A stretch of 64,000 bases of DNA from Patescibacteria group bacterium (GTDB taxonomy: Bacteria > Patescibacteriota > Patescibacteriia > UBA9934 > GWF2-40-263), in assembly GCA_041661745.1 (NCBI GenBank), contig JBAZTR010000002.1, positions 4,368 to 68,367 of the forward strand, given 5' to 3'. Positions 3,915 through 52,228 of the stretch are shown here, one piece after another. Made by a program: the position numbers and the translations under genes. Position 1 is the first letter of the stretch. Each line of letters starts with the position of its first letter. The notes under the pieces are model-generated. The model was not told where the DNA came from. It was given only the letters and a program-made list of their open reading frames with translations, and made no database searches.

Positions 3915-3951
3915 AATAATGGGTGAATTAATAACCGGTTAATTATACTAC

Positions 3952-3983
3952 AAAAAAAGAACCGCCGGAAGTTGGTGGCGGTC
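3952..3983 (-). terminator. rho-independent terminator downstream of ftsZ and the structured element, upstream of the htrA promoter
   Basis: On the minus strand, GACCGCCACCAACTTCCGGCGGTTC hairpin followed by TTTTTTT. A TATAAT -10 for htrA follows at about 3947-3942. Confidence 0.6.
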
Positions 3984-4150
3984 TTGGTTTTAGGCGACGT
4001 TCGGGGGTTGATTGGTTTGCTGGGCAGTATGACTTGGACAGTTGGTATTCGGGCGTTATAGGGCGCTAAGGCAAGGAAAATATTTCTTCAATAAAGCCCT
4101 TTAATGCCCGAGCGCCGCCTAACCAAACCGACCCCCGAAGGCCACTCAAA

Positions 4151-5553: not shown

Positions 5554-6813
5554 TTACGGCCTGAGCGATTTGAACCATCCACCAACCACTCCGGCAACAT
5601 TTTTTACCCCTTTCATTTTGTTAAAAATCTGACCAAACTTGCCATCGTGAACTTGGGCCATAGTGTTGTGCCCCCACAAAACCAAACCAATAGCCGTGGC
5701 CATACCCGGGTCATTCACCCGTTCAACAACCGAAGTAACACCAATTGGCGTACCAAGGGAGGCTGGCAGGCGCAGAGTCTTTTTAGCGGCTTCAACAATG
5801 CCATGCATTTTAGCTCCGCCACCGGTTAAAATAACACCGGCCGGCAACATACCGGACCGGCCGATCTTACGCAACTCCTCATCAACTTTTTCAAAAATTT
5901 CCGAAACACGAGCTTCGGCAATGTCAGCAATAAAACGACGACCAACAATTTCTTCCTCAACCGCGCCCAAGTCAGCCAAGTTTACCTCTTCTTTTTTATT
6001 AATCTCCTCTGGCGAAGCACTGGCATAACGCAATTTGGCCTTTTCTGCTACCTCAATCGAGGTTCTAAGACCGATAGCAATATCAGAAGTAATATGAGCC
6101 GCCCCAATCGGCAGAACCGCGGCGTGTAAGACATCACCTTCTTCAAAAACAATTAAACCAGTGGTCGAGGCCCCGATGTTAATAACACAGGCCCCAAGAT
6201 CTTTTTGTTTGGCAGTGATGACCGCATCGGTCGTTGCCAAAATAGACAAAACAACATCTTCGATATCAATTCCCGTGCGATGAATAGCTTTTGTAATGTT
6301 TTTGATTTGCGTTGTTTGGCCTTGAACAATAAGTGCATCCACTTCAAGACGAATGCCGGTCATACCAACCGGATCTTTAATGCCCCGCTGGCCATCAACA
6401 GTAAAGCTGCGCGGCAAGACATGTAGGATTTCGCTGTTAGCCGGCATAGCCACGGTACGGGCCGCATCAATGGCACGATCAACGTCGTCATCACGAATTT
6501 CGCTGTCGCCACGGGCCACTCCGACCACTCCGCGACTTTCCTGGCAGCTGATATGAGTTCCATTAATTCCCACCCAGGCTCGGCTCATTGGTAAACCGGT
6601 CAGACGCTCGGCTTGTTCCAAGGCCCGGGAAACCGAAGAAACCGCATCTTCAATGCTGGTGACGTTTCCTTTATTTACTCCTTCGGAAGGAATTTCAACG
6701 GCTCCGATAATATGGATAACATCTTTGCCCTCCTCGGCTGGCAAAGGCTGGCCAACCACAACCCGAACGGCGTGTGAGCCAATATCCAATCCGACAATTA
6801 TGTCTTCATTCAT
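5554..6813 (-). CDS. ftsA: cell division protein FtsA (actin-like ATPase)
   Basis: MNEDIIVGLDIGSHAVRVVVG start and actin-fold motifs, located immediately upstream of ftsZ. Confidence 0.9.
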   Translation of the reverse strand: MNEDIIVGLDIGSHAVRVVVGQPLPAEEGKDVIHIIGAVEIPSEGVNKGNVTSIEDAVSSVSRALEQAERLTGLPMSRAWVGINGTHISCQESRGVVGVARGDSEIRDDDVDRAIDAARTVAMPANSEILHVLPRSFTVDGQRGIKDPVGMTGIRLEVDALIVQGQTTQIKNITKAIHRTGIDIEDVVLSILATTDAVITAKQKDLGACVINIGASTTGLIVFEEGDVLHAAVLPIGAAHITSDIAIGLRTSIEVAEKAKLRYASASPEEINKKEEVNLADLGAVEEEIVGRRFIADIAEARVSEIFEKVDEELRKIGRSGMLPAGVILTGGGAKMHGIVEAAKKTLRLPASLGTPIGVTSVVERVNDPGMATAIGLVLWGHNTMAQVHDGKFGQIFNKMKGVKNVAGVVGGWFKSLRP

Positions 6814-7662: not shown

Positions 7663-8736
7663 CTATGGCGCAAGCGTTAAATTATTCATCATCATTTCAA
7701 AAGTCGTCAAATAATCAACACTGGCTTTTACCGTGTTTTGATAACTCACAACAATCACCCTGGTCCCAGACTCAATGTAAACAGTCATCTGGTCTTCGGC
7801 TTCTAAAGTTGAATAGCCTTGTTTGGTTTCGCCGGAGGTAACTTTAACCTCAGAACTAAGATTTGTTCCACTGAACCAGTCGGCTAAGCTTACTCCGACC
7901 TCTTTACTTTCAAGGCCAATGGTTATGGTTTCACCGCTTGGGACAACAAAGGTTGTGCTTCCATCAGTTCCTTCACGAACTGTCCAGGCTTGGGGATATA
8001 AAATCTCGAAAACCCCCATCTTTTGATAAAGCGTAACAACCGAGGAATCACGTAGATGCGCCGGGTCTGGAGAATTCGGATCATAACCATTAAAAACTTC
8101 GTTACCGTCAAGAAAGCCATCGCTATCAGTATCAGGTTTTTTGGAACTTGTTTTATAAAGAATTTCTTCAGCGTCGGTCAAACCGTCGCTGTCAGTGTCG
8201 CGACCGGGCTGCGAATTATTGGGAAACGGCGAAGCTGAGTTTGTCGACGGTTGATTTGTTGCCTGATTAGTATTGGTATTGGTTGCCGGCTGATTAGTGG
8301 GTTTGTTTACATTAACTGAATTATTAGTTGTTGTGTTAACTAGAGGTGTAGTTGTTACTGGTTTAAAAACAAAATAAAGATAAACTCCGGAACCAACTAA
8401 AACTACCAGCAAAACTACCCCAGCAATTAAAAGAGCTCGGGTAGTTTTTGACATTCCCTTCTTTTTTCCCCTCACCCCTGTCCCCTCTCCCTTAGGGAGA
8501 GGGGTTGGGGAGAGGGGTCGAGGCGCTGGGACAAGCGGCGGCGGCAAAGCGGCTGGGCTAGCGGCGGCCGCTGGCTTCATTGTCGGCGGATTTACCCGAG
8601 CCGCCAAGCCGCGAAATTTTTCCGGCATGGAAAAAACCTGCGGCGCGCCTGCGGAAGCCTTGGCAGTTGGCGGAACCTCGATCTTTTTTTGTCCGGCATC
8701 TTCAAACATACTTTTTAAAATTTTCAATTTGTCCAA
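7663..8736 (-). CDS. hypothetical single-pass membrane protein with a Pro-rich cytoplasmic N-terminus, extracellular Ca-binding DxDxDG (thrombospondin-3-like) repeats and an unknown C-terminal domain; paralog 1 of 3
   Basis: Shares the MFED start with the next gene. TM helix LLIAGVVLLVVLVGSGVYLYFVF, then DTDSDGLTDAEE and DTDSDGFLDGNEV repeats. Contains an in-frame copy of the hairpin repeat at 8471-8517. Confidence 0.6.
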   Translation of the reverse strand: MDKLKILKSMFEDAGQKKIEVPPTAKASAGAPQVFSMPEKFRGLAARVNPPTMKPAAAASPAALPPPLVPAPRPLSPTPLPKGEGTGVRGKKKGMSKTTRALLIAGVVLLVVLVGSGVYLYFVFKPVTTTPLVNTTTNNSVNVNKPTNQPATNTNTNQATNQPSTNSASPFPNNSQPGRDTDSDGLTDAEEILYKTSSKKPDTDSDGFLDGNEVFNGYDPNSPDPAHLRDSSVVTLYQKMGVFEILYPQAWTVREGTDGSTTFVVPSGETITIGLESKEVGVSLADWFSGTNLSSEVKVTSGETKQGYSTLEAEDQMTVYIESGTRVIVVSYQNTVKASVDYLTTFEMMMNNLTLAP

Positions 8737-10304: not shown

Positions 10305-13300
10305 TTACGGGAAGAACATGTCTTCAATTGATGACGAATCGCAATCATCGCCACAGGTATTAGCTACACAAGTCCCAGCTGTAGTTCCCCACACACCACT
10401 AGTTACACCGCAATAAAGGCTGGCCGACGACGAACCAACAACACATAGTCTATTTGTGTAGTCATAAAGAACTGGTGGCAAAATAAGTCTACGTGATCCA
10501 CCATCACAAATTCCCAAATCATCAGCGGCCATGGCAGAATAACCAGGGCCAAACAAAGAACAATCGCAAGTAGCTGTGTCAGTACAACTGGAAGCAAGTT
10601 TAATAACACGCGAGGCTGGATTAGTGGCACCTCTAACGCAATAAATATCCTCAAAAGCTGTTTCGTCACAAGACTCGCCACCGTCTATTATACTATCGCC
10701 GCAGACCGGCAAATAAGCCGACAGTGTATCGGTAGAACAAGTGCCATCACAAGTATTTGCCTTGCAGACTCCAGCATCGGCCCCAGAGCCGCACATTGCC
10801 TCGGACCACGAAGTTGACGTATAGCAAACCGCGCTATCAAAATCATAACCACCGGTTGTTCCGCCACTACAAATGCCCAGAATGTTTCCATAATTTTCGG
10901 CATAACCGGCGTCACAACCAGTATCTGATCCAAGAGCATAAATATCTCGCAGGCTTGGATCTTCATCAAAGTTAACGCAATATTTTGGAAAATCTCCCCC
11001 GTCACAATATTCACCGTCGGCCGTATCAATTCCACCATCACCGCAACCGGAATCGCAGGCATCACCGATTCCGTCACTGTCAGCATCGGCCTGACTAACA
11101 TTAACAACACTCGGACAATTATCTTCCACGTCAACAATTCCATCACCATCAGTATCAGCTAAAGTTTCGCCGCCGCCGACCGAGCCGACCGAGCCGGCCG
11201 CCCCCTCACAAACATCACCAATTTCGTTTAAGTTTGCGTCTGCTTGATCTTCGTTAGCATCGTTCGGACAATTATCATTAAAATCAAGAACGCCGTCACC
11301 GTCTGAATCTATAGTCGAAGACGCCCCGGTTCCAACACTAGCCGAGCTGGCCGGACAATAGGAAAGTTTAATATCACTAATATTCACGGTTCCTTCGCCG
11401 CTGAAAGAAATACGGAAAGGAATATTCCATTCGTTCTCTGTGTCACAGCCGAAGCCCTCGGGAAATGGAATAACAACATCATCGCCATCAAAAACTTCAT
11501 CCGAAGTCAAAGTGGTTTCTCCGGCAAAGTCAGTGGTGAAAGTCATGGTCAAACCAATAATACTGTCGGCGATTTGTTGATACATTTCGTCGAGGTCATC
11601 GGAGGAGCTGGCACTAAAAGCATATTCGATATCATCAGTTACCGAACAGTCGGCGACATTGCTATAAGCAGTTTCGGACGGATCGTTCTCGAGACAAGAA
11701 TCAGACGACCAATGGGCCATTTTACCAATAAGCGCATCAGTGGTCATGAGTGCTGCGGTATAAATTTCAATACCGTTAGCAATCGCCGCATTTCTAATGT
11801 CTTGAATTTCTTCGTAATATTTATAAGCCGAGGTATAGGTACTGCTATCAATAAGAACGTTTGGATCCCCATCACTTAAAAGAATAATGATTTGATCATC
11901 AGCCTCACTATCCTCAAGTATATTTGCCGCGCACTGCAAACCGGCCGATAAAGGTGTACTACCTCCAGTTCTTGTTGAATAACTTTCCACACTGTATTCA
12001 CCATAAATCAACTGTGATTCGTTTGTTGTTAAATCGCTATCAATCCAAGCCAATCCAGTCGTTCCGGCGGAATTGGTTATGCAAGCATCGGCCAAAGTGA
12101 TTGCTCCATCGTTATTATGATCCGAGCCATCTTCTAAAGTATTGGTAAAGCTAACCAAACCAATTTGCAAATTACTATAATCATCAAAGGCATTAAATAG
12201 TTCTTGAATAGCTGACGAGATTGAATTAACCGTTGCTTCAATCTTTGTCGAAGACATGCTTCCCGATAAATCAGTCACAAAAACAATATCAACATCCAGC
12301 GGAATAATATTAGTTGTGTCGATATCGGCCGTCAGTGATGTGCCGACCGAACAGGCTGGTAAGAAAATAGAAGCCGTGTCAGGACTATCTCCCGAATTAT
12401 AACTGTAAAGATCAGCCGAGGTTTCTTCAGTTGCTCCGGCCAATTCGGTTTGAATGGAAACCGAAGTCGTTGAATAGGAAAAAGGACAGGTGGCACTGCA
12501 AGTGGCCCCGCAGTCGGCAACCATACAAGTTCCACCGCTAGAATCAATTCCGCAGTCATAGCCGGAAGAGCCAGTCCCGGCGACACATGGTGCGCCGTTG
12601 TAATCATAATAACCGTCTAATGTACAAATAAAATCGCCACAGACAGACGCTTGACGCCAGCCGCCATTACAAACACCGACCTGTTCCAAACAGTGGTAAT
12701 TATTATCCGTATCGCAGTCGGCGTCAGTTTCACAAGCCGAAGTCGAGATTCCGCGCTCGTCGGGATTTGTCCCAGCCAAATAACAATACTTTGGCAAATC
12801 CGAACCATCACAGAATTCACCGGTTTGCATTACCCCGTCACCACAATAAGAACCGGACATCGTAGTGTATTGGCAATTAACATTACAATAATTACAGGTG
12901 CCACTATAATCAGGTGAACAAACCGTGCCGTTTTCCAATCCATCGTCGCAAGTTTCATGGCCGGCATAAACCGCATCATCACCACAAATATTAAATTTAC
13001 ATTCCGCAGTACAGTCGTCGGTATTATCGTCGTTGCCATCATCACATTCTTCATCACCTTCAACACTGCCGTTGCCGCAAATTTGCGTGCCACCCAAACA
13101 AGCACTCCAGGTGTTCCAACCACAAGCGCCGCCAGTGCCATCGTCACAAGTTCGATAACGAGAAAGTTGATATTCAAAAGACGTCTTGCAGTCGCCGCCT
13201 CCGGTACAATCAGCGTCTTCACTACATTCTTCATTGTCACGATCGCCGCCATCACAAACCGCAGAAATCGGACAAGCAGCATAAACTGTGCCGCAATCGG

Positions 13301-16300
13301 TTTCATCACAATCAGCATCGGTTGTACAGGTCGCATAATTATCAGCTGCGCCGCACAAAGCCCCATTCCATGCTTCACTATTACCATCACATGATTCATC
13401 GCTATTCACTTCCCCATCGCCGCAAGACGGCCCGGGATAAGAGCAGTCGTAGGCGCAAGTGTGTGCCGCGTCAGCATCGTAAATGCCGTTAGCGTCCGCG
13501 CAAGAATTAATTGTTGACCAACTGGAAGTATCGGCGTGGACATCGGTCCAATTGGCAGTTGAACCGCAATCACATTCTTCGCCGCCGGCTAAATAACCAT
13601 CACCGCAATACCAGGCGTTATCCAAACCACAGTCACTGTCACAATATCCGTATTCTCCATTATTTGTTCCGTCATCGCAAGTTTCACCAGGATCAAGAAC
13701 ACCATTGCCACATTCATAAGGTGAACAAGAGCCACCAGCTGCTTCGGCTTCGGATTCATCCATGTAATCAGAACAATCAGAAAGACACGGAGCGTCCATT
13801 GTCCCATTGTTATCATCGATGCCGTCGTCGTCGCTATCGTAGGTACAAGAAATTGTGTCGGTATTACCTAATTCACAAATTTCACTTAAACCACGCACGC
13901 CATCACCGCAACGTGTCGAGGTTCCCAAATTTGAACCATTACAGAACTCACTATCAATTCTAAACCCATTTGCCACGTCTTCCGCATTGGCAAACTCCGC
14001 ATAAACAGTGGCATTATCAGTTGAATCGTCATCAATCGGATAAGCCCAATAATCACCAGGGGAATCTTCAAGTTGCACTGAAAGAATATATTCCTCACCG
14101 CCAATACTTTGATAAAGATAGGTATTAGAATCTTCGCTGCAAGAAAAAGTGCCGGCCGTTGAATCCCAACAATAAGTTTGATCAGTATAACCGGGACAAT
14201 AGAATTCGTTTAGAGGATCAGTAGGAATAGCTGTACCAAGGGCATTACCCAACTCAGCGTTCCATGATGGCCAAGTACTGGTGGAGAAAGCGGAAAGAAA
14301 TGTCCCGCTTTGAATTTCTGGCACTTCGGCCATACAGGTTTCATCATCGCCCGGACAATCATCATCCTCACTGCAATCCTGGCCTTTTGTTACCGAGCAG
14401 TGACGATTTTCTTCGCCGTAAGCGGCCAAGTCAGAGGCAATTTTACGAGCATCGGTTAAGCGTACCATGTTGCGACGCAGTTTTCCTTTTTCCGCATCAC
14501 AGAAAGCCGAAGCGTCGCTTAATTCACTAATACAATCCAAATTAGAAACACACGAAACATAATCACCTTCGGCGTTAACCGCGTAATCTCCGTCTGAAAC
14601 ACAGACATTAATGTCACTTACTTCAAGATCGCCAGAACTATTAAGACCGGCATTAAATTTCCAGTTCTCTAAAACCTGTTCAACAATGGCATCAGTTTCT
14701 TCACCAGCTCCTTCGTTATAAGAAATTACATAAATATTCGGATAATTGGTGACACTTGAAGAACTGTAATTAGCCGCTGAAACATAATAAGTATTACCGT
14801 CCTGAACCGCCTCATAGCCGTCCACTGTCGTTTCACTAGGTGAACCGGAAAAACCTTGAACATCAAACCAGGCCGATGGTGAAAGATAGTCCTCGTTGGA
14901 GAAAACCCGGACACCGATAGCGTCGCTGGTGCCATCAATTAAAAAGAGTCGCTCTTGAAGAATGTCCACGCCGCTCGGGGTAACCGGCGGTTCAACTTCG
15001 ATAAGCTCTGGTAAATTATCGCTTCCCTCTTGGTCGCGACAATAATAAAAGGAGAAATTAGAATAATCTTCAAGATACGGGAAAGCGGCGGTCATCGGAT
15101 TTGGCCACAAGGTTTCGCACATGTTCGCCTCCAGTTCAGCCGAACCGGTTACAATTGTGCCGTCAGAAACCACTGTGGCCGAGGCCGAGGCTAATTCCTC
15201 ACCGTTCACTCCCGAGGAGGTGACGGTGGTTGTTACATCATCGACATTGATCACTTCAATTACTGTCTCGGCCGACTCGTCGCCCCAACCCCAAGTCCAT
15301 GAGTAGTCATCGATTTCTTGAATTTCTTCGGCCGAAGCACCATCTAAAGTATAAGACGCGGCCAAAAGTGTGTGTTCTTCACCGGATTCGGTAAACAAGT
15401 ACGCACTCGGCTCGTCAAAAATATCCTTCAATTCGGTTTTACCAGTATCTTCAACGGAAACCATTTCCAAAGCGCAAATTTCCGTACCAACTTCAAAATT
15501 AACAATTTCACCATCGTAAATCGCCACGCCGTTGGTATTAACAACCCCTTCAACAATATTATCTAGTGGGTCACCGGCTGACTCGCCTAAAGCCACCAAA
15601 TTATAAGTTCCACTTTCAAGAGCCTGAGAAAAATCAAGATCAATTCTTGAACCATCACCAAGCTCGGATAAAGTATAAGAAACCGGAACAAGACATGCAC
15701 CAAACGTCTCCGCGTGAACCCCAAGAATTCTCAAAACGTTTTGAGCCAGCCATCCCCAAGCCCGGGAAAATAAATTATCACCCGAATCGTTGCGAGCAAT
15801 CAGCAAAGTAGTATAAGTGGTTGGACAGTTTGTTTCGTCGACAGCAATAGCAGTTGGTCCGGTGCCGATAGAAACAAATTCCAAATACAAAGCTCGTGAA
15901 TCATTTAGTCCGCCAGCGTCCATGGTTTGATCAAAATCCATGTAAACTGAAGTATTGCGACACACACCAGTTGACCCGGCAACCGGGTAATAGTCAGTAA
16001 TGGCCGGGCGTTTAAAACAACAAGCGGCATCGCCACATCCATAAGTTATACCACTGGTGTCACAGTTATAATCAGAGACACATGAACATTCCAGAGTGAA
16101 AGTCGCTGACCCCTCAGCCTCACTTGAACCCTCGGTCGCCACAATAGATGTAATGGCAATATTTTCACCGGAAGCCAAAACTTCTTGTGGTGCTTCTTCG
16201 GAAATTTCAGCAATGGTAAATGGGGCAACGCTGGTCACCCCGCTCGCTTCACACTCCTCACCAGCCTCGGTTTCTAAATCAAGGTCACCGCAAATTGAAC

Positions 16301-19300
16301 CATAATCTTCGTCCGATCCTTCACTCAAGCAAAGAGATGAACAACCGTCGTCATCGGTGGTATTGCCATCATCACAATCTTCGCCGGTTCCGATTTCACC
16401 ATCGCCACAAGCTGAAGGAATAGAGTAAGACGATGACGAACCTTCGTTTAGGCAAGACGACGAACACCCATCGCCATCGGTGGTGTTGCCGTCATCGCAA
16501 TCTTCGCCGTGTTCCGGGTCACTGCCATTGCCGCAGACACCATAAAAATTATCAATCGTTTCAGAACCTTCATTCAGACAATTGGCTGAGCAGTTATAAG
16601 CGGCTTTATCTTCACCGTAATCACACTCTTCCCCGCCAATCATATTGCTGTGAGCCACGAGACCGTCACCACAATCATATCCCAGGGATGAAGCCCCTTC
16701 GTTCAAACAAATAGACGAACAACCGTCATTGTTTGAAGTATTACCTAATTCGTCGCATTCCTCACCGATTCCTACTGCGCCATCACCGCAAACCGAAGGA
16801 GTACTGTAACTTCCACCGGAACCCAAACGAAGACAAGAAGAAGAACAGCCTTCCGTACCATCACAATCCTCCCCAAAGTCAATTTCACCATCACCACAAA
16901 CAGCTATCGGAGTTTCGGTTCCAATATGCAAACAATCTAAAGAACAACCATCGGCTAAATTATTAGAAATCATGATTGCCCCGCCACCAACCAAGTCGGC
17001 AATATTAGCCGTTGGCAATTCATCAGTTTCATCAATGGCCACCCAGGTTTCCCAGGTGTAGCCAGCGGCTATTAGTCGTTGGCCTTCGGCTGAACAGGCA
17101 TCGGGTGAGCCGTACGGCACAGCCGTAAAACGTTGAATTGTCCCAACCCGAGTGGCTGTGGCTTCGTTTGGTTCAACTTCTACTCGATCGACAGTACAAG
17201 CCTCAGCTTTAGTCGTAAAGGTCCATGACAAATCACCGTACCAAGCCAGGTCACCGGCCGCTTCACTTAACAACGAACCGCTCTCTGATTCAGCTTCACC
17301 AGAAATGATCACGCGATAAGAAGTATCAATCAACAAATTTCCGGGCGGAACAATTGTCAGTATGTCAGTTTCGTCATCGTAACTCGAGGCGACTGAACTA
17401 ATTTCTACTAGTTCATCAGGGGCACAACCTGGATCCTCGCAACTAAACAATCTAACTATTTGTTCACCACCACTATCCGTTCCGGAAAAAGTTCCGGCGG
17501 CCATTGGAATATTAAAAGTTGCGCCGATTTCCGCATCCAGGCAAGCTTCGGTACAACTCGGCCAGTAATCAGTAATTTTTGGATCAGTAAAGCTGATGGT
17601 TAAATATCCGTCATCACTGACACTGTAACCATCGGGCTGAGCATTAATCGCAACCGGGCCATCGGTGCCGGTTTCTTCCTCGGCTATAACCATCGCCCCA
17701 CAGCCGACAACACTACCAACACTTGCCTTACTCGAATCGCTGGAAGAAAAATTCCAGGTGTAAGGTGAACAGTCTAAAACCGTGCACTGATATTCCGAAC
17801 TGGTCGGCGCAGCACTATAAGCAATTTCCTCGTTTTGTATGTTTGAAGTCTTTTCGCCTGGCGAAACAATAACTCCACCAATTTCACAAGCGTCTCCAGA
17901 AGCCGCAGTTTCAAATTCCCAAATAACGTCTTCAAGCATTACTAAACCTTCGATACTTTGTATTGTTCCGACCTCACCACCATAAACGGTCACGCGATAT
18001 CGAGTATCGGCGGCCCAATCAGACGCGGGTATCCAGGTAAAACCACTTTCATTATAAGAAGTCGGCGAACTTTCCATTTCCACAGCCGCGGTGTCCGAAC
18101 AGGTTTTATCAGTACACTGCTCTACCAAAAAGCCGGCAGTTGAATATGAAAGCGCGTCCATGTCTTCGGTGAAACTGACACTTAAAGCCGCGTTAGAACA
18201 AATCTTTGTTCCGCCATCCCAACCTTCCCAAGGTGTCGGGGAAACCCATGTTTCATCACACTCAATGCGAACATCTGGCGCTTCAGGAATATCACCGGTG
18301 GAAAAATAATAGGCGTAATGTGAAACAGTCTCAGGGTCAACGCATTCCGTTGCTGAACAAGCCCCACTAGCACAACAAGTTTCACCCGAGCCGCAAGAAA
18401 AATCAACGTTACAAACGCCAACAGTAAAATTAACTTTGTTGGATTTCTGAGCATCACTGTCAATTACAATAACCGGACCACTGTTTGTGTCAGCAGGAAC
18501 AACCACGCCGGTTGTTTCACCAATTGCTCCACTCGTCCAATCATCAGTTGTGGCTGTTTGATCATTGAAAAAAGAAATCGAGCCGACCGTGGTACCAAAC
18601 CCCTCACCATATAAAGTAACCGCTGTGCCGACCGGACCGGAATTGGGAACAATGGCACAAAATCCGGGGGCCGCTTCGCCAGTAGTCACAACAAAGTTAA
18701 CTGCTTCGGATTTTAAACCATCTTCGGCCCGCTGTATGTATAAATCATGAGTAATCGCATCAACCGAATTGGTGTTGCTGTATTTCGCGGGAACTTTAAT
18801 AATAATTTCAGTATCACTCCAAAAACTGTCTTCGCATTCATCGGGAAAATTTGTGTCGCCTAAAGCTTCGTAATCTGTGCTTTGGCTAACAAACCGAACC
18901 GTTCCTTCGCTGGTACCAAAACCAGAACCATAAATGGTTAAATATTGGCCAATCGGGCCTTCTTCAGGATCAACCTGACTAATTACCGGAAGTTCCTCCT
19001 CAGTAACCGAAGTGGTAACAAATTGGAGTTCGTTAGAGCCCTCACGAGCATCGCCACTGCCGGTAAACAATTGAATATCGAAAATTCCGGCATCCAATAA
19101 CGGCGACACGGCCCCGAAAGATGTTGTTGACCAATCGCTGTAACTGGCCGCTTCATAAGAATCAAAATAAAGCGTAGCGTCAGTGCTTGATTCCCCAAGG
19201 TTAATACCGTGAAGTGTAACGGCAGAGCCAGCCTCGCCGCTTTCCGGATCAATAGAACAAAGGCCGGGGCGAACTGTTTCATTAACTTCAAAGTCGCTGA

Positions 19301-20870
19301 TATAAGAACCGTTTTCGTCGTTGGTTTGATCGTATTTGCCATCGGCAGCAATTAATTTAATCGGGCCGCTTTCGGCTTCGTCTTTTAATTGAATAATCAC
19401 TTGGCTATCACTCCAAGCTTCCACGCATTCCTCGCTGGAGTAAGCCGAATGACTAACTTCGGTCGTTGTCCCTAGAAAGACAACACTGCCCGGCGCTTCA
19501 CCAAAGCCTTGGCCAGAAATAGTAATTAAGTTACCAGGAGCGCCATCACCGGGCGAGACGGCTTCGATTTCCACTTCCTCTTCGCAAACACCATCAACAC
19601 ATGATCCGGAAGAGCAATCAGAGCTGTCAGTACATTCTTGGTTTTCGCAAGCGCCGCAATAAGAATCCGCCGATGAACTGCCACCACAATCAATCCCACT
19701 TTCACTTTCGTCTTGTACACCATTGTGGCACGAAGCGGCCCGTAACATCACGCTAATTTCCGCATCAACATCGTTACCGGCGCAATCAGAACCCTCGGCC
19801 AAAATACTATGGTCATCGTTGGTAAAATATCCGGCCGTGTCCCATTCGCTGTCAAAATAACCATCACCTTCGATGTCATTAACTGTGCTATTAATTCCGG
19901 TATCAATATAGAAATCAACCGAGGCTACCCCAGTATCATCAACCGCATATGCTTGAAGCATAGCGGCTTCGTCAGCGTAAACTGACTCGCCATCATCAGG
20001 CGCCGTAATTTCAAAAACCGTTGGCGCGGCTAAATCAAACCCCGTGCCCGTGGTAAAAGTAAATTCACACGGGTAAGCGGTTGAGCATTGAAGATCATAA
20101 CCACTGGAGCTTTGCAAAGCCGAACTGATGGTAATGTTATAGGTCGTTTCCGCTTCAAAACAATTAACTGAATAATCATCTTCGGCAAAACAGATTGCCT
20201 CAGGAGTAAAAGTAAACGAAGTGGCGCTGGCCGTGGTTGAGCGTCCAACCGCGGCAAAAGTGCCAGCCACTTCTTCCCCACCCTTGCTGATAGAAATGCC
20301 GGTGCCATCAACAACATCTTCCGTGGCTACGCGCTGACTGAAAATAAAACGCAACTCCAAATTTTGCAAACTTGAAGCGCAATCGGTATTAACACTGGTT
20401 AAAACAAAGGAATGGGCGTAATCAGGAATATCGCCACCGCCGCCCCCGCCGCCAACTTCAGTCCCGACGCCGCCACCAATTGAGCTAGTTAGTCTTGATA
20501 AAACAAATTGAGCGATGGTAAAAGAAGAAAGCATTATCAAAAGTCCGATAAGGCCGTTCTTTAAAACTTTTTTAGCTTTGGCTATTTTTTCTTCTTCACC
20601 ACCGGCCGTGACCCACAAAAAGCCAGCGTACAAAACAACAATTACCGCAACAATTCCCAAAAAGCCCAAAAAGGTTCGAATCGCTCGGGCAATCATTAAA
20701 ACCAGACTGCCGCTAGCCAAACCGGACGAGGCGGCAAAAGTTTCGCTATCGCCGCCAAACATTTGATTAGCGGTGAGAGTTTCGGCCAGAGCCGGAGTAA
20801 CAAACAAAAGGCCAAGGGCCACGCCTAATCCGACAATTATTAATAAAGATAAGAGACGATTTTTTTTCAC
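10305..20870 (-). CDS. giant (3521-aa) secreted or surface protein with a TrbC/VirB2-type pilin-like N-terminal membrane anchor, then IPT/TIG domains, tandem myxococcal Cys-rich repeats, a vWA domain and thrombospondin type-3 Ca-binding repeats
   Basis: Signal peptide ending ALA, then two TM helices around YAGFLWVTAGGEEEKIAKAKKVL and a poly-Gly linker. IPT-like GxGFG segments (ISGQGFGEAPGSVVF, TIYGSGFGTSEGTVRF, TLYGEGFGTTVGSISF). At least 10 CGDG-x-GE-CDDGN-x-DGCS-x-C repeats. vWA MIDAS DIVFVTDLSGSMS...SDGDP. DSDGDGVLDFNDNCPNDANEDQAD and DTDGDGIVDVEDNCP thrombospondin-3 repeats. Starts 4 nt downstream of the preceding gene. Confidence 0.8.
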   Translation of the reverse strand: MKKNRLLSLLIIVGLGVALGLLFVTPALAETLTANQMFGGDSETFAASSGLASGSLVLMIARAIRTFLGFLGIVAVIVVLYAGFLWVTAGGEEEKIAKAKKVLKNGLIGLLIMLSSFTIAQFVLSRLTSSIGGGVGTEVGGGGGGGDIPDYAHSFVLTSVNTDCASSLQNLELRFIFSQRVATEDVVDGTGISISKGGEEVAGTFAAVGRSTTASATSFTFTPEAICFAEDDYSVNCFEAETTYNITISSALQSSSGYDLQCSTAYPCEFTFTTGTGFDLAAPTVFEITAPDDGESVYADEAAMLQAYAVDDTGVASVDFYIDTGINSTVNDIEGDGYFDSEWDTAGYFTNDDHSILAEGSDCAGNDVDAEISVMLRAASCHNGVQDESESGIDCGGSSSADSYCGACENQECTDSSDCSSGSCVDGVCEEEVEIEAVSPGDGAPGNLITISGQGFGEAPGSVVFLGTTTEVSHSAYSSEECVEAWSDSQVIIQLKDEAESGPIKLIAADGKYDQTNDENGSYISDFEVNETVRPGLCSIDPESGEAGSAVTLHGINLGESSTDATLYFDSYEAASYSDWSTTSFGAVSPLLDAGIFDIQLFTGSGDAREGSNELQFVTTSVTEEELPVISQVDPEEGPIGQYLTIYGSGFGTSEGTVRFVSQSTDYEALGDTNFPDECEDSFWSDTEIIIKVPAKYSNTNSVDAITHDLYIQRAEDGLKSEAVNFVVTTGEAAPGFCAIVPNSGPVGTAVTLYGEGFGTTVGSISFFNDQTATTDDWTSGAIGETTGVVVPADTNSGPVIVIDSDAQKSNKVNFTVGVCNVDFSCGSGETCCASGACSATECVDPETVSHYAYYFSTGDIPEAPDVRIECDETWVSPTPWEGWDGGTKICSNAALSVSFTEDMDALSYSTAGFLVEQCTDKTCSDTAAVEMESSPTSYNESGFTWIPASDWAADTRYRVTVYGGEVGTIQSIEGLVMLEDVIWEFETAASGDACEIGGVIVSPGEKTSNIQNEEIAYSAAPTSSEYQCTVLDCSPYTWNFSSSDSSKASVGSVVGCGAMVIAEEETGTDGPVAINAQPDGYSVSDDGYLTISFTDPKITDYWPSCTEACLDAEIGATFNIPMAAGTFSGTDSGGEQIVRLFSCEDPGCAPDELVEISSVASSYDDETDILTIVPPGNLLIDTSYRVIISGEAESESGSLLSEAAGDLAWYGDLSWTFTTKAEACTVDRVEVEPNEATATRVGTIQRFTAVPYGSPDACSAEGQRLIAAGYTWETWVAIDETDELPTANIADLVGGGAIMISNNLADGCSLDCLHIGTETPIAVCGDGEIDFGEDCDGTEGCSSSCLRLGSGGSYSTPSVCGDGAVGIGEECDELGNTSNNDGCSSICLNEGASSLGYDCGDGLVAHSNMIGGEECDYGEDKAAYNCSANCLNEGSETIDNFYGVCGNGSDPEHGEDCDDGNTTDGDGCSSSCLNEGSSSSYSIPSACGDGEIGTGEDCDDGNTTDDDGCSSLCLSEGSDEDYGSICGDLDLETEAGEECEASGVTSVAPFTIAEISEEAPQEVLASGENIAITSIVATEGSSEAEGSATFTLECSCVSDYNCDTSGITYGCGDAACCFKRPAITDYYPVAGSTGVCRNTSVYMDFDQTMDAGGLNDSRALYLEFVSIGTGPTAIAVDETNCPTTYTTLLIARNDSGDNLFSRAWGWLAQNVLRILGVHAETFGACLVPVSYTLSELGDGSRIDLDFSQALESGTYNLVALGESAGDPLDNIVEGVVNTNGVAIYDGEIVNFEVGTEICALEMVSVEDTGKTELKDIFDEPSAYLFTESGEEHTLLAASYTLDGASAEEIQEIDDYSWTWGWGDESAETVIEVINVDDVTTTVTSSGVNGEELASASATVVSDGTIVTGSAELEANMCETLWPNPMTAAFPYLEDYSNFSFYYCRDQEGSDNLPELIEVEPPVTPSGVDILQERLFLIDGTSDAIGVRVFSNEDYLSPSAWFDVQGFSGSPSETTVDGYEAVQDGNTYYVSAANYSSSSVTNYPNIYVISYNEGAGEETDAIVEQVLENWKFNAGLNSSGDLEVSDINVCVSDGDYAVNAEGDYVSCVSNLDCISELSDASAFCDAEKGKLRRNMVRLTDARKIASDLAAYGEENRHCSVTKGQDCSEDDDCPGDDETCMAEVPEIQSGTFLSAFSTSTWPSWNAELGNALGTAIPTDPLNEFYCPGYTDQTYCWDSTAGTFSCSEDSNTYLYQSIGGEEYILSVQLEDSPGDYWAYPIDDDSTDNATVYAEFANAEDVANGFRIDSEFCNGSNLGTSTRCGDGVRGLSEICELGNTDTISCTYDSDDDGIDDNNGTMDAPCLSDCSDYMDESEAEAAGGSCSPYECGNGVLDPGETCDDGTNNGEYGYCDSDCGLDNAWYCGDGYLAGGEECDCGSTANWTDVHADTSSWSTINSCADANGIYDADAAHTCAYDCSYPGPSCGDGEVNSDESCDGNSEAWNGALCGAADNYATCTTDADCDETDCGTVYAACPISAVCDGGDRDNEECSEDADCTGGGDCKTSFEYQLSRYRTCDDGTGGACGWNTWSACLGGTQICGNGSVEGDEECDDGNDDNTDDCTAECKFNICGDDAVYAGHETCDDGLENGTVCSPDYSGTCNYCNVNCQYTTMSGSYCGDGVMQTGEFCDGSDLPKYCYLAGTNPDERGISTSACETDADCDTDNNYHCLEQVGVCNGGWRQASVCGDFICTLDGYYDYNGAPCVAGTGSSGYDCGIDSSGGTCMVADCGATCSATCPFSYSTTSVSIQTELAGATEETSADLYSYNSGDSPDTASIFLPACSVGTSLTADIDTTNIIPLDVDIVFVTDLSGSMSSTKIEATVNSISSAIQELFNAFDDYSNLQIGLVSFTNTLEDGSDHNNDGAITLADACITNSAGTTGLAWIDSDLTTNESQLIYGEYSVESYSTRTGGSTPLSAGLQCAANILEDSEADDQIIILLSDGDPNVLIDSSTYTSAYKYYEEIQDIRNAAIANGIEIYTAALMTTDALIGKMAHWSSDSCLENDPSETAYSNVADCSVTDDIEYAFSASSSDDLDEMYQQIADSIIGLTMTFTTDFAGETTLTSDEVFDGDDVVIPFPEGFGCDTENEWNIPFRISFSGEGTVNISDIKLSYCPASSASVGTGASSTIDSDGDGVLDFNDNCPNDANEDQADANLNEIGDVCEGAAGSVGSVGGGETLADTDGDGIVDVEDNCPSVVNVSQADADSDGIGDACDSGCGDGGIDTADGEYCDGGDFPKYCVNFDEDPSLRDIYALGSDTGCDAGYAENYGNILGICSGGTTGGYDFDSAVCYTSTSWSEAMCGSGADAGVCKANTCDGTCSTDTLSAYLPVCGDSIIDGGESCDETAFEDIYCVRGATNPASRVIKLASSCTDTATCDCSLFGPGYSAMAADDLGICDGGSRRLILPPVLYDYTNRLCVVGSSSASLYCGVTSGVWGTTAGTCVANTCGDDCDSSSIEDMFFP

Positions 20871-45586: not shown

Positions 45587-45600
45587 ATAAAATTTATTCT

Positions 45601-45637
45601 CCCTCTCCTTACGAAGGAGAGGGTTGGGGTGAGGTTA
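45601..45637. repeat. hairpin repeat element, copy 1 (CCCTCTCC-TTACGAA-GGAGAGGG-TTGGGGTGAGGTTA); its last TTA is the stop codon of asnS
   Basis: Perfect 8-bp stem with a 7-nt loop. Lies between two co-directional genes. Confidence 0.7.
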
Positions 45638-46936
45638 GGGGGTAATTCTGTTGATCAGTCTTGGAAATGGAATGGATTCGCGAACATGTTCAAGGCCGCA
45701 AATCCAGGTAACCAGACGTTCAAGACCAAAACCAAAACCAGAATGCGGCACTGAACCGTATTTGCGTAAATCCAGATACCATTGAAAAGCGTCGAGCGGC
45801 AGATTGTGTTCTTTAATGCGCGCCAACAATATTTCGTAATCATCTTCACGTTGACTGCCACCGATGATTTCGCCATAACCTTCCGGGGCAAGCAGGTCAG
45901 CACAAAGAGCACGCGACGGATCAGCTGGATCGCGCTTCATGTAAAAAGCTTTCACCTCGGCTGGATATTTTTCCACAAAAATCGGGCGATCGTATTGCTT
46001 GGTCAAAATCGTTTCATCATCACCGCCCAAATCATCCATTTCCCCAATGTCGCTACCGAGTTCGTGGAGTTTGGCCACGGCTTCGGCATGGGTCATACGG
46101 ACAAACGGGGCCTGAATTTTTTGCAATGGTTCAATGGATCGCTCCAAAACTTTCAACTCGTGCTGGTTCTTTTCCAAAACATCTTTGACAATGCGGCAAA
46201 CCAATTCTTCTTGAATCTTCAAGTTCTCGTCGTGCTCAACAAACGCTGCTTCGGCATCCATCATCCAAAATTCTGTCAGGTGACGGCGAGTCTTTGATTT
46301 TTCAGCGCGAAAAACCGGACCAAAATCAAAACACTTGCCCAAGCTCATCACTCCGGCTTCCAAATACAATTGACCAGACTGGGCCAGGTACGCTTTGCCA
46401 ACATCAAAATAATCCATTTCAAAAAGTTCCGTTGTTCCCTCGCAGGCATTCGGGGTCAAAATCGGCGTATCGAATTTTACAAAACCGGTTTCCTTAAAAT
46501 AATCGTAGGTGGCACGAATAATGGTGTCGCGAACGCGTTGAATGGCCCACTGCTTTTCAGCGCGGAGCCACAAATGACGATTGTCGAGCAAGAAATCCGG
46601 ACCGTGTTCTTTTTTACCAATTGGATAATCCTCGGGTGCGAGCTGAACAATTTCAACCAAAGTGCCATCAAGTTCAAAACCCGAAGGGGCGCGTGGTTCG
46701 GCCTTAACCGTGCCATGAATAATAACCGAAGATTCAATGCGAAGGGTGGTTAATTTTTCCCACTGTTCAGCCGGCAAACTGGCCGCCGAATAAACGATTT
46801 GTACTCGGCCGGTGCCATCGCGAAACTGCAAGAAAAAAATCTTACCGCTGGAGCGGAAGTTGTAGGCCCAACCCTTAAGTTCGACCTCCTGACCGACGTA
46901 TTTTTGGATCTCGGAAACAAATGTATATTTAGGCAT
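45635..46936 (-). CDS. asnS: asparaginyl-tRNA synthetase
   Basis: FRAEKSKTRRHLTEFWMMDAE motif 2 (AsnRS-like), GFGFGLERLV motif 3, and the ending FPRLINRITP. Confidence 0.8.
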   Translation of the reverse strand: MPKYTFVSEIQKYVGQEVELKGWAYNFRSSGKIFFLQFRDGTGRVQIVYSAASLPAEQWEKLTTLRIESSVIIHGTVKAEPRAPSGFELDGTLVEIVQLAPEDYPIGKKEHGPDFLLDNRHLWLRAEKQWAIQRVRDTIIRATYDYFKETGFVKFDTPILTPNACEGTTELFEMDYFDVGKAYLAQSGQLYLEAGVMSLGKCFDFGPVFRAEKSKTRRHLTEFWMMDAEAAFVEHDENLKIQEELVCRIVKDVLEKNQHELKVLERSIEPLQKIQAPFVRMTHAEAVAKLHELGSDIGEMDDLGGDDETILTKQYDRPIFVEKYPAEVKAFYMKRDPADPSRALCADLLAPEGYGEIIGGSQREDDYEILLARIKEHNLPLDAFQWYLDLRKYGSVPHSGFGFGLERLVTWICGLEHVRESIPFPRLINRITP

Positions 46937-48857: not shown

Positions 48858-49379
48858 TTAACTTTTATTTACTTTATATCTAACCTGCAATATATCGTCA
48901 GCAATTTTTACAGAGTCAATAAAAGATAGTCGTTTTTCAAAATCCTTCTCTGCAAAAAGAGGTACGCCACTCCCAATAATTGCTGGCTCGATATCTAGTA
49001 TTACTTCGTCAATCAAATTCTCGCCTAAAAACACACTATTAATTGTGCTTCCACCTGTTAGAAGTACTTCCTCGAAATTCATAGACGCGGCTTTTTCGAC
49101 GGCTTCCTGGGGCGAACTAACCGCTATAAACGGTGGGTCTAACTTTAAATCCGTATTGGTAGAAACGACCATCTTTAATTTGGCATCAATATCGTCAAAA
49201 TTATAATCCGGCCATTTTTGAACGGCTTCATAAGTTTTCCGACCGATAATAAAACAACCACGTTGTTTTGCCAATTCAGCAAACGACTCCCAATTGGTTT
49301 CCGATAAAAAATTTTCATCACCGTTTTTACTGGCGATCATTCCATTCAAAGACATGGCCATGAACAAAGTAACTTTCAT
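48858..49379 (-). CDS. dihydrofolate reductase family protein (RibD C-terminal-like / YwjB-type)
   Basis: MKVTLFMAMSLNGMIA...FIIGRKTYE pattern. Confidence 0.65.
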   Translation of the reverse strand: MKVTLFMAMSLNGMIASKNGDENFLSETNWESFAELAKQRGCFIIGRKTYEAVQKWPDYNFDDIDAKLKMVVSTNTDLKLDPPFIAVSSPQEAVEKAASMNFEEVLLTGGSTINSVFLGENLIDEVILDIEPAIIGSGVPLFAEKDFEKRLSFIDSVKIADDILQVRYKVNKS

Positions 49380-49407: not shown

Positions 49408-49444
49408 CCCTCTCCTTACGAAGGAGAGGGTTAGGGTGAGGTTA
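49408..49444. repeat. hairpin repeat element, copy 2; its terminal TTA is the stop codon of map
   Basis: CCCTCTCCTTACGAAGGAGAGGGTTAGGGTGAGGTTA. Confidence 0.7.
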
Positions 49445-50215
49445 TGGCAATGGTGTAAGAATTTCGTGTCCGTTTTTTGTAATAACAATTGTTACTTCAA
49501 AATGCGCAGCAATGCTGTTATCTACGGTTATCGCTGTCCAACCATCATCAGCGGTTTGCACTTCACTATTGCCCATGGTAATCATCGGTTCAATTGCTAA
49601 ACACATACCGGGTTTAAGCGGGACACTTGGCTGCCGCGGGTAAGTGTAATTAGGCACATTAGGTGCTTCGTGCACAGCGTGGCCAACCCCATGGCCAACT
49701 AATGCCGTAACAATACCGAAGCCGTGCGGCTTAACATGTTTTTCCACGGCCGCACTAATGTCTCGAACATCGCCTTTAGGTTTAGCCGCAGCCACCCCGG
49801 CAAACAAGGCCTCACGGGTGACCCGCATTAATTCTTCGTCCTCAACGGAAATTTTTCCAACCGGCACGGTTACCGCCATATCAGTAAAGCGTCCTTGATA
49901 TTCGCAACCAATGTCTAAACTAACAATATCACCCTCTTTTAATTTAATTTTACGATTAGCTATGCCATGCACAACTTCGGGGCCAATGGAGATACAAAGG
50001 GTAGTCGGAAAGGCCGGTTCGTTTCTTGAACCACGATAACCTTTAAATGACGGCACCGCGCCATCCGCGCGCAAGGACTTCTCAGCAATTTCTTCCAACT
50101 CACTAATAAAAATCCCGGGGCGCACGGCCTTTGCCGCTGCGGCCAAAGCCCGCGAAAGAATTTTTCCACCCTCGCGCATGGCTTTAATGTCTTCATCGGA
50201 TTTTATTAGTGACAT
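49442..50215 (-). CDS. map: methionine aminopeptidase type I
   Basis: Pita-bread fold with its metal ligands (D..D..H..E..E pattern). Confidence 0.9.
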   Translation of the reverse strand: MSLIKSDEDIKAMREGGKILSRALAAAAKAVRPGIFISELEEIAEKSLRADGAVPSFKGYRGSRNEPAFPTTLCISIGPEVVHGIANRKIKLKEGDIVSLDIGCEYQGRFTDMAVTVPVGKISVEDEELMRVTREALFAGVAAAKPKGDVRDISAAVEKHVKPHGFGIVTALVGHGVGHAVHEAPNVPNYTYPRQPSVPLKPGMCLAIEPMITMGNSEVQTADDGWTAITVDNSIAAHFEVTIVITKNGHEILTPLP

Positions 50216-50842: not shown

Positions 50843-50893
50843 AACGGCTGTAGTATAGCAGAGTGATTAAGGGAGGTTAAGGGGCTGCGACGT

Positions 50894-50925
50894 AAACTAA
50901 AAAACCGTCCATCATTGGACGGTTT
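50894..50925 (-). terminator. rho-independent terminator after secY
   Basis: AAACCGTCCAATGATGGACGGTTT followed by TTTT on the minus strand. An adk promoter candidate (TTAACC, 17-nt spacer, TATACT) follows. Confidence 0.55.
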
Positions 50926-50926
50926 T

Positions 50927-50971
50927 CCCCCTCTCCTTACAAAGGAGAGGGGGGTTCGGGGGGTGAGGTTA
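50927..50971. repeat. hairpin repeat element, copy 3; its terminal TTA is the stop codon of secY
   Basis: CCCCCTCTCCTTACAAAGGAGAGGGGGGTTCGGGGGGTGAGGTTA. Confidence 0.7.
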
Positions 50972-52228
50972 GAGCTCGTACTCGCGCATCGTTAACTGGG
51001 CCTCAATCTGTTTTACTGTTTCAATAACCACGTTGACCACGATCAGGACTGAGGTTCCACCAATAACCAAACTGGCATTACCTGTAAAGCCCTGCAAAGC
51101 GACCGGCATTACAGCAATGGCTGCCAAGAACAAAGCACCGGCCAGCAAAATACGGTTGGAAACATAGTTCAGATACTCAGCCGTTGGCTTGCCTGGACGA
51201 ATACCAGGGATAAAGCCACCTTGATTTTGCAAATTCTCGGCCACCCGATCAGGATGGAAAATAACTGCTGTGTAAAAATACGAGAAGAAGAAAACTAAAA
51301 GGAAATAGGCAATGCCGTAAAACAACTGATTATCAAACATGGTCATGGTAAAGTTGGCCGCCTCACGTAACCAATCGCTCTTAGCACTGGTAAAAAATTG
51401 AGCGAACACCCGAGGAAACAAAATAATGGAAATAGCAAAGATAATCGGGATAACGCCGGCCATGTTCACCTTGAGTGGCAAATGGTTAGCCACGGCGCCG
51501 TAACGGGAAACCCGACCGCCACGAGCGTACTGGATTGGCACGTTTCGTTGTGCCTCGTGCATAATCACCACACCGATAATCGTCAAACACACCACCAAGA
51601 CAAAAAGAATCAAAGTTATCATTTGTGAACGGTCGTATACAGCCAACGAGCGTTGAAAAAACTGTGGCAACCCGGCAGCAATACCGGCAAAAATCATGAT
51701 AGAAACCCCGTTACCAACGTGCTTTTCGGAAATCAATTCACCGAGCCACATGATAAATATTGTACCAGCACTCATGGACAAAATGGCAATGAGAATTGTT
51801 AACCAACTCAAATCTTGAAAAACGTCCGGAACCTGCTGACGCAAAAGTAGAATCATGCTGTAACCCTGAAACACGGCCAAAGGCACGGTTAGCCAACGCG
51901 TCCACGAGTTAATCTTTTGGCGACCCTGCTCTTCCTTTTGCATTTCCTCAAACTTCGGAACAATCATGGCTAACAACTGGAAGATAATTGAAGCGGTAAT
52001 GTACGGGGCCACTCCCAAAGCCACAATGGAAAAATTTTCCAAGGTACCACCGGAAAAAATATTAAGTAAACCGAAAAACTGATTACTTTGAAAAAATGAG
52101 GACAGGGCTCCGGCGTCCATACCAGGCACGGGGATGTGCGCGGCGACCCGGAAAATCGCTAGCATGGCGAGAACGAACAAAACACTGTTTCTCACCTCAG
52201 GCGTTCGAAAAACACGCTGAAGGATCAT
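50969..52228 (-). CDS. secY: preprotein translocase SecY
   Basis: 419-aa protein with 10 TM helices and SecY signature regions. Confidence 0.95.
   Translation of the reverse strand: MILQRVFRTPEVRNSVLFVLAMLAIFRVAAHIPVPGMDAGALSSFFQSNQFFGLLNIFSGGTLENFSIVALGVAPYITASIIFQLLAMIVPKFEEMQKEEQGRQKINSWTRWLTVPLAVFQGYSMILLLRQQVPDVFQDLSWLTILIAILSMSAGTIFIMWLGELISEKHVGNGVSIMIFAGIAAGLPQFFQRSLAVYDRSQMITLILFVLVVCLTIIGVVIMHEAQRNVPIQYARGGRVSRYGAVANHLPLKVNMAGVIPIIFAISIILFPRVFAQFFTSAKSDWLREAANFTMTMFDNQLFYGIAYFLLVFFFSYFYTAVIFHPDRVAENLQNQGGFIPGIRPGKPTAEYLNYVSNRILLAGALFLAAIAVMPVALQGFTGNASLVIGGTSVLIVVNVVIETVKQIEAQLTMREYEL

Follow-up and report, generated by a model that had tools for sequence, protein, structure and literature searches.

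The stretch of DNA analyzed here, in the following referred to as the window, comprises 64,000 nucleotides (nt) from a Patescibacteria group bacterium (GenBank assembly GCA_041661745.1, contig JBAZTR010000002.1, positions 4,368 to 68,367) and carries four copies, designated c1 to c4, of a short repeat made up of one C-rich and two G-rich segments. Three of the four copies are intergenic and occupy spacers between co-directional genes of the minus strand, namely between asnS (45635..46936) and aspS, between map (49442..50215) and a RibD_C/DHFR-like gene (48858-49379), and between secY (50969..52228) and adk. These gene pairs, already named in a first-pass annotation made from the sequence alone, were confirmed by Pfam and NCBIfam, with AsnRS, Map and SecY encoded upstream and a non-discriminating AspRS, the RibD_C/DHFR-like protein and the adk product, respectively, downstream. 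Read on the plus strand, c1 (45601..45636) has the structure CCCTCTCCTT-ACG-AAGGAGAGGG-TTG-GGGTGAGGTT, with the Y arm at 45601-45610, the R arm at 45614-45623 and the third strand at 45627-45636. Copy c2 (49408..49443, plus strand; Y arm 49408-49417, loop ACG, R arm 49421-49430, third strand 49434-49443) is the same except for TTA as second loop, while c3 (50927..50970, plus strand; Y arm 50927-50938, R arm 50942-50953, third strand 50959-50970) reads CCCCCTCTCCTT-ACA-AAGGAGAGGGGG-GTTCG-GGGGGTGAGGTT, all three segments being two G/C longer in parallel.

The three intergenic copies had been noticed at these places in the first-pass annotation, which overlooked a fourth one, c4 (8469..8517), lying on the minus strand and thus in the opposite orientation to c1-c3. 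This copy is of the canonical type and two-sided (H-Y-R-H), the plus strand reading CCCTCACCCC tgt CCCCTCTCCC tta GGGAGAGGGG tt GGGGAGAGGGG, and it is located inside an ortholog-supported coding sequence (CDS). All four copies show the same tripartite order on one strand, that is, a C-rich arm, a loop, a G-rich arm, a second loop and a second G-rich arm (class II, Y-R-H), with arm and loop lengths of 10/3/10/3/10 in c1, c2 and c4 and of 12/3/12/5/12 in c3. Consequently, the stems amount to 10 bp in c1 and c2 and to 12 bp in c3, each closed by a 3-nt loop, and not to the perfect 8 bp proposed before. The 21-nt hairpin core is found at three sites of the window (c1-c3), compared with 0.00 expected from 100 dinucleotide shuffles, and c1-c3 are near-identical over 36 nt; counting all copies, four occurrences in 64 kb again face an expectation of 0.00. 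Together with hundreds of relatives elsewhere, this bears out the earlier view of a repeat family as opposed to unrelated G-rich sequences. No additional copy was present in 3.5 kb of further contig sequence beyond the window. According to the GC skew, the plus strand is C-rich (lagging) throughout.

By their sequence, c1 to c4 are members of a pan-bacterial family of short, G/C-rich interspersed repeats described successively under the names BoxC, PIT (potential intrastrand triplex) and TMECO (Holder et al., 2015, PMC4666352; see also Bergler, 1992; Hoyne and Maher, 2000), to which a full-text search for the arm sequences had led. The published pattern is CCCTCNCCC-N3-6-GGGNGAGGG-N3-GGGNGAGGG, a class II purine-motif intrastrand triplex, of which 23 sequences have been tabulated for Escherichia coli K-12 (Holder et al., 2015). 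The consensus CCCTCNCCC ... GGGNGAGGG ... GGGNGAGGG is fitted completely by c4 and at eight of nine positions per arm by c1-c3, in which all three arms deviate at the ninth position in a coordinated manner (T / A / T). Apart from loop 1, c2 equals K-12 TMECO no. 2 throughout the stems, loop 2 (TTA) and the third arm, the one exception being the ninth triplet, where C:G*G is replaced by T:A*T, a change affecting all three segments and leaving the triplet valid. The local variant represented by c1-c3 thus has a stem lengthened by two T:A pairs and a third strand correspondingly ending with TT. As in the known elements, the core is CCCTCTCC / GGAGAGGG / GGGTGAGG, the order of segments is the same, the 3-nt second loop TTA/TTG is that of 'type A', every triplet is valid, and the copies are multiple and found at loci varying among close relatives, three of the four in the window being intergenic. 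What distinguishes the window copies is the T:A*T in place of G:C*G at the ninth and tenth triplets, a host from the Patescibacteria, members of the candidate phyla radiation (CPR), instead of Enterobacteria or Cyanobacteria, an overlap of 2 nt with stop codons compared with distances of 10-310 nt from open reading frames (ORFs) in E. coli, and the translation of one copy, whereas E. coli copies are always intergenic, there without strand bias (Holder et al., 2015). The published TMECO 1/2 pair of E. coli K-12 (164547-164631), for instance, lies 12 nt past the hrpB stop and bears no RefSeq annotation. Searching Rfam at gathering as well as permissive thresholds returned only tRNAs and chance matches, none for the element. 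The window element is an already described repeat, and it is the Patescibacteria host and the T:A*T-extended variant that are new. The earlier description as a hairpin repeat was right about the reality of the family, while the third G-rich segment and the published BoxC/PIT/TMECO identity had gone unrecognised.

The capacity for triple-strand formation was evaluated by a script for Watson-Crick and reverse-Hoogsteen compatibility (G*G:C, A*A:T, T*A:T) with the third arm placed antiparallel to the purine arm. Valid purine-motif triplets were obtained at 10/10 positions in c1, which has 10 Watson-Crick pairs, at 10/10 in c2, at 12/12 in c3 and at 10/10 in c4, the latter giving 10 valid triplets on either strand. 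ViennaRNA, applied to the copies, predicts the hairpin only. For assessing covariation of the three segments, 308 copies from public collections were used. The pattern CCTCTCC N3-9 GGAGAGG N1-10 GGTGAGG was run on species-representative genomes and viral contigs and retrieved at least 120 loci with the degenerate motif from the former, with Planctomycetota, Chloroflexota, Bacteroidota, Cyanobacteria, Proteobacteria, Acidobacteriota, Verrucomicrobiota and Omnitrophica among the matches listed, and at least 120 loci from the latter (IMG/VR; L250-L329 and further loci). A narrower, TT:AA-extended pattern gave at least 120 loci in metagenomes. Some viral contigs harbor five copies within 3-12 kb (L264, L272, L317); for the E. 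coli copies, Holder et al. (2015) report no link to phages or plasmids.

In the genome set, where the loop was unconstrained, 105 of 108 copies with a C:G pair adjoining the core carry G in the third arm, and all copies with T:A at this place (9/9) carry T; in the metagenome set, where TT:AA was fixed by the pattern, the free third-arm base is T in 135/147 and A in 9/147 copies (A*A:T being also a valid triplet), all of these counts probably being inflated by shared ancestry of subfamilies. Furthermore, the three segments are correlated in the length of their G/C runs (Spearman 0.59-0.72). The direction of the covariation is as predicted by a triplex or at least a mirror constraint, and as the third segment covaries, an RNA hairpin alone is insufficient as explanation; rather, the constraint on this segment presumably acts at the DNA level. 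The third strand of c1-c3 ends exactly at the TT of the TTA with which the element had been thought to end. Among the 147 metagenome copies, TT follows in 77, and the next base varies (TTT 32, TTA 18, TTC 18, TTG 9). Since this base is not conserved, the element comprises the TT but not the A. TTA was therefore rejected as conserved element end, only T and often TT being retained.

The asnS, map and secY genes terminate on the minus strand with TAA at 45635..45637, 49442..49444 and 50969..50971, respectively, and the TTA on the plus strand at each of c1-c3 is the reverse complement of these codons. Element and stop have two nucleotides in common in all three cases, the AA of TAA complementing the TT at the end of the third strand. 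The idea that the TTA of the element is read as stop thus holds insofar as the stop codons physically overlap the element, of which only the TT forms part, the A being variable. TAA is the stop of 39 of the 50 long ORFs in the window (78%), and the spacers between co-directional genes have a median length of 10 nt, with 55% of them not exceeding this value. In relatives, empty asnS-aspS spacers measure 1 nt (L126, TAGTATG) or 5 nt (L372). Because the spacers are so short, any insertion is necessarily near a stop. The mRNA-sense end of the element is AA, and trimming inside the A run would merge it with TAA. The extent of the overlap is not fixed, as the orthologous map copy of the relative L121 has one A more than the window copy, reading TAA-A-CCTTAC. 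The flush contact is therefore largely explained by compaction in combination with the 2-nt overlap.

In our view, the copies are probably triplex-prone, DNA-level interspersed repeats that a compact genome tolerates at the ends of genes and that share 2 nt passively with the native TAA. When the G-rich DNA strand becomes single-stranded, the pyrimidine arm and the complementary purine arm would fold into a hairpin, and the third segment, a second purine-rich arm mirroring the first, would be accommodated antiparallel in the major groove, resulting in a class II purine-motif triplex. In an Uhrbacteria-like Patescibacteria genome such as this one, with spacers of a few nt and TAA as stop in about 78% of the cases, copies would come to lie flush against the upstream gene, and the AA of the gene's own TAA would double as complement of the terminal TT of the element. 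We infer that the copies are tolerated or selfish structural repeats and not devices required by asnS, map or secY. As a side effect, the hairpin of 10-12 bp that they necessarily form on the mRNA may shield the 3' side or interfere with termination, an effect on mRNA 3' ends or termination being plausible by analogy to REP (repetitive extragenic palindromic) sequences.

The copies are labile, with gain, decay and loss occurring among closely related genomes. The orthologous regions compared came from L121, L123 and L126, showing 91%, 90% and 81% AsnRS identity, respectively, and for the asnS site also from L370, L371 and L372, i.e., from six relatives. Among the genomes compared, only the window has an intact asnS copy. 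In L121 and L371 this copy has decayed via C-to-T and G-to-A changes, and it is absent from L370 (stop TGA), L372, L123 (stop TAG) and L126. The secY copy is absent from L121, L123 and L126, while the map copy is common to the window and L121. Two of the three element sites coincide with differences in gene content. Only in the window is the map copy followed by the RibD_C/DHFR-like gene, L121 passing straight to ruvX, and between secY and adk L121 possesses an extra 252-aa ORF (3931-4689). These differences agree with the literature, in which the element is associated with variable loci, TMECO-bearing loci being more variable among E. coli strains (Holder et al., 2015). Repeats of other kinds were observed in one of these relatives. 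In L123, the asnS-aspS spacer contains a different, inverted ACTACGAAA-type repeat (11303-11407), and a G-rich, G-quadruplex-like tandem repeat, (GGTAGGGA)x4, is found after secY (about 4755-4800). In L249, a further related genome, the ftsA-ftsZ spacer (6505-6650) holds two copies of the BoxC-type element in opposite orientations, the first at 8 nt past a TAG stop, followed by a T run.

Several observations weigh against seeing tolerated DNA-level repeats in these copies, in addition to the inflation of the covariation counts. The hairpin of the map copy is identical at 22/22 positions between the window and L121, although the third-codon identity of the flanking genes is only 0.53-0.61; the third-arm part, in turn, shows four changes in L121 compared with the window. 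Such identity is indicative of selection acting on the hairpin, of gene conversion between copies or of re-copying in the recent past. In L121, two variants with long loops (12667-12735 and 15648-15760) each lie 1 nt past TAA with the C-rich strand in the mRNA, and both are followed by GGGAGAAT, placing a Shine-Dalgarno-like GGGAG 7-10 nt before the next start, an arrangement that hints at a local role in expression. Moreover, flush contact in 3/3 intergenic copies exceeds what would be expected from compaction only, with rough estimates of ~3e-5 for random placement in the present spacers and of ~1e-3 for plausible pre-insertion spacers. At such flush sites, selection may have been at work, or else a local bias toward the 3' side of TAA. 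Finally, although the isolated G-rich strand from E. coli forms a stable triplex in vitro, a triplex could not be detected in vivo (Holder et al., 2015), so that it is the covariation on which the DNA-level constraint rests.

Accounting for the copies by a cis element acting at the RNA level appears rather unlikely, albeit with several observations in its favor. The hairpin, beginning 11-14 nt past the stop on the mRNA of c1-c3, would serve as barrier against 3'-exonucleases, as processing site or as modulator of termination or ribosome stalling, or else the element would be an intercistronic module the 3' arm of which (AAGGAGAGGGAG) offers a Shine-Dalgarno sequence to the next cistron. From work in E. 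coli attributed to Liang, Rudd and Deutscher and dating from 2015, REP hairpins within 15 nt of stop codons reportedly modulate termination and ribosome stalling. The spacer segments of c1, c2 and c3 are predicted to fold with minimum free energies of -17.1, -19.2 and -39.6 kcal/mol, respectively (the c3 segment including the adjacent terminator hairpin), and the RNA hairpins have z-scores from -3.7 (c1) to -5.9. Relative to transcription, c1-c3 are uniformly oriented, the C-rich strand being part of the mRNA in each case, and the perfect conservation of the map hairpin against a near-saturated neutral background, with decay of the third-strand part in L121, would fit a role in the transcript, as would the GGGAG positions of the L121 variants. 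Family-wide, an orientation bias with respect to co-directional genes was not found (15 vs 12, 6 vs 5, 11 vs 8), which is still compatible with a hairpin role because the hairpin is the same in both orientations.

On the other side, an intrinsic terminator requires a G+C-rich hairpin with an immediate U tract, and no U tract was found after c1 or c2, which are followed by AGAAUAAA and AAAAUAAA, respectively. One scan rule marks c1 as terminator-like via its weak A/T tail, but the count of terminator-like sites in the region equals the shuffle expectation. As stated in the first-pass annotation, only the secY copy is followed by a true intrinsic terminator, located on the minus strand at 50900..50926 (AAAACCGTCCAATGATGGACGGTTTTTT in mRNA sense) directly after c3 and separate from it. 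This terminator is conserved in sequence in L121, which is devoid of c3, and L123 and L126 have hairpin-plus-T-tract terminators of their own at that place. A dedicated terminator or attenuator is consequently disfavored by the lack of a U tract at c1/c2, the separate terminator at c3, the free loss of the asnS copy and the assays with PIT elements in E. coli, which gave neither promoter nor terminator activity (Holder et al., 2015). With respect to translation, the AGAAT tail (45596..45600, minus strand), directly after the c1 hairpin in mRNA sense and recurring after copies and asnS remnants in the lineage, forms together with the last G's of the arm the sequence GGGAG, which might act like a Shine-Dalgarno sequence. 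At 12 nt before the aspS ATG and at 28 nt from the start at c2, its spacing is poor, and aspS of relatives functions with a spacer of 1-5 nt and no element. Any dedicated RNA role is further disfavored because Rfam yields no match, orientation is unbiased, the PIT assays were negative and purine-motif triplexes do not form in RNA (Holder et al., 2015); the covarying third segment, too, is left unexplained by an RNA hairpin. Between the secY terminator and adk, a promoter-like TTAACC-17-TATACT with TG extension is present on the minus strand (50852-50880), and the CTGCTATACTACA..CCGTTATG stretch at this site is conserved in L123, which suggests that adk starts its own transcription unit.

Another, quite improbable reading is that a BoxC-type element has been co-opted as intercistronic 'punctuation' in Uhrbacteria-like Patescibacteria, or has been inserted by targeting the 3' side of TAA. 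If so, the end of the element would be shared with the stop, the hairpin would be placed 11-14 nt downstream at the edge of the terminating ribosome, and the 3' arm and AGAAT tail together would present the next cistron with GGGAG, by which termination, mRNA 3' ends or re-initiation would be tuned in genomes nearly devoid of spacer DNA.

Even less probable is the scenario favored in the first-pass annotation, in which a mobile REP/MITE-like element (MITE, miniature inverted-repeat transposable element) inserts into gene ends, replaces the native 3' termini and supplies the TAA. The TAA is indeed directly continuous with the element in 3/3 intergenic window copies, and exactly the same contact is found after other genes in unrelated low-GC metagenomic contigs (L136, L143, L202). 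In addition, the loop shared by c1, c2 and the map copy of L121 suggests recent copying, and asnS has TAA wherever the element or a remnant is present and TAG or TGA in three of the four lineages without it, a small sample for which a hypergeometric estimate gives p of about 0.11. However, a comparison of C-termini with orthologs shows no trace of replacement. All of the best 120 AsnRS homologs, those from element-less genomes included, end with ...IPFPR(L/M)xxRxxP at the same residue (120/120), and the NCBIfam asnS profile is matched through to its end by the window AsnRS. SecY ends with ..QLTMREYEL in the window, L121 and L123 and with ..RQYDA at the same length in L126, and Map with ..ILTPLP in the window and L121, being 1-3 residues longer in L123 and L126. 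Nor does the element need to donate the stop. In L121, L123 and L126, all three without the element there, the corresponding codon of secY is TAA as well, TAA prevails among the stops of the window as given above, and within the family the A of TTA varies. Looking for a family-wide spike at offset 0 from the upstream stop revealed exact contact in only 2-3/71 cases, although in the T:A subfamily offsets within 10 nt (1-9 nt) of the upstream stop occur in 14/71 cases versus 3/58 on the other side. Comparison of filled with empty or remnant sites at asnS, map and secY disclosed neither a target-site duplication nor terminal inverted repeats, the central hairpin being the only inverted repeat. 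The stop codons and protein C-termini are thus native with nothing replaced, and the replacement version of the insertion model is largely refuted.

Chance G-rich sequences or ordinary intrinsic terminators, for which the terminator-like call on c1 by one scan rule might be adduced, are refuted by the three core sites versus 0.00 expected, the near-identity of the copies over 36 nt, the hundreds of relatives elsewhere and a regional terminator-like count equal to that of shuffled sequence.

Labeling the repeat as REP/MITE-like was appropriate insofar as it is a genuine short interspersed repeat of the REP-like class, while terminal inverted repeats and target-site duplications were not seen at the compared sites. 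REP and BIME sequences of Enterobacteria and Pseudomonas are likewise short, multi-copy and hairpin-forming, occupy spacers at gene ends and inside operons, and the RNA hairpin near the stop codon could act like REP. In contrast, no GTAG/CTAC head is visible in c1-c3, REP lacks a third mirror segment, and REP sequences are species-specific, whereas the BoxC-type core is nearly invariant across phyla. A RAYT gene was not seen, with no search aimed at RAYT being made. MITEs such as Correia and ERIC/IRU are also small, non-autonomous interspersed repeats able to overlap gene signals, but the BoxC-type element is much shorter, has no terminal inverted repeats apart from its central hairpin and generates no target-site duplication at the compared sites; we know of no parent insertion sequence. 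With H-DNA mirror repeats it has in common the purine/pyrimidine mirror symmetry, the capability of forming a triple helix and a link to genome instability in the literature. H-DNA, however, is a duplex mirror repeat with one half unpaired, while in the BoxC-type element all three strands are contributed by one DNA strand as hairpin plus third segment.

The coding copy c4 is part of a real membrane-protein gene, the CDS of which ends at 7663 and the N-terminal region of which aligns with orthologs (P0121, a hypothetical protein from a Patescibacteria metagenome-assembled genome). It is translated in frame as ..PLSPTPLPKGEGTGVRG.. (in-frame peptide ..PLPKGEGTGVRG..) in a variable, proline-rich linker ahead of a membrane helix. 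In a 65%-identical ortholog, the linker reads GKGEGLGVRG and is encoded by a copy with a longer loop (L249, 3550-3610), and distant orthologs have about 12 residues fewer at this position. Such an in-frame translated insertion in a variable low-complexity linker, present in only some of the orthologs, is reminiscent of Rickettsia palindromic elements. Yet, there is no sequence relationship, those elements are about 100-150 nt long as opposed to about 36-49 nt, and only one coding copy was seen here. The same part of the window encodes a surface protein of 3521 aa (10305-20870) that is rich in cysteine and contains TSP3, Big and TIG repeats; after it come three small, mutually paralogous membrane proteins with TSP3 repeats, c4 being located in one of them.

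With the identification of the repeat, a tempting but wrong story of an element rewriting the ends of essential genes is replaced. The triplex-prone motif of 30-odd bases known from E. coli and cyanobacteria is now also found in a CPR genome, squeezed against stop codons and in one case translated. Comparative evidence from the survey directly supports a constraint acting on each of the three segments, and the motif was also encountered in many phyla and in viral contigs. Compact genomes that nevertheless retain BoxC/PIT elements, to which Holder et al. (2015) assign no function, and that allow filled, decayed and empty sites to be compared lend themselves to studying what these elements do and how they spread.

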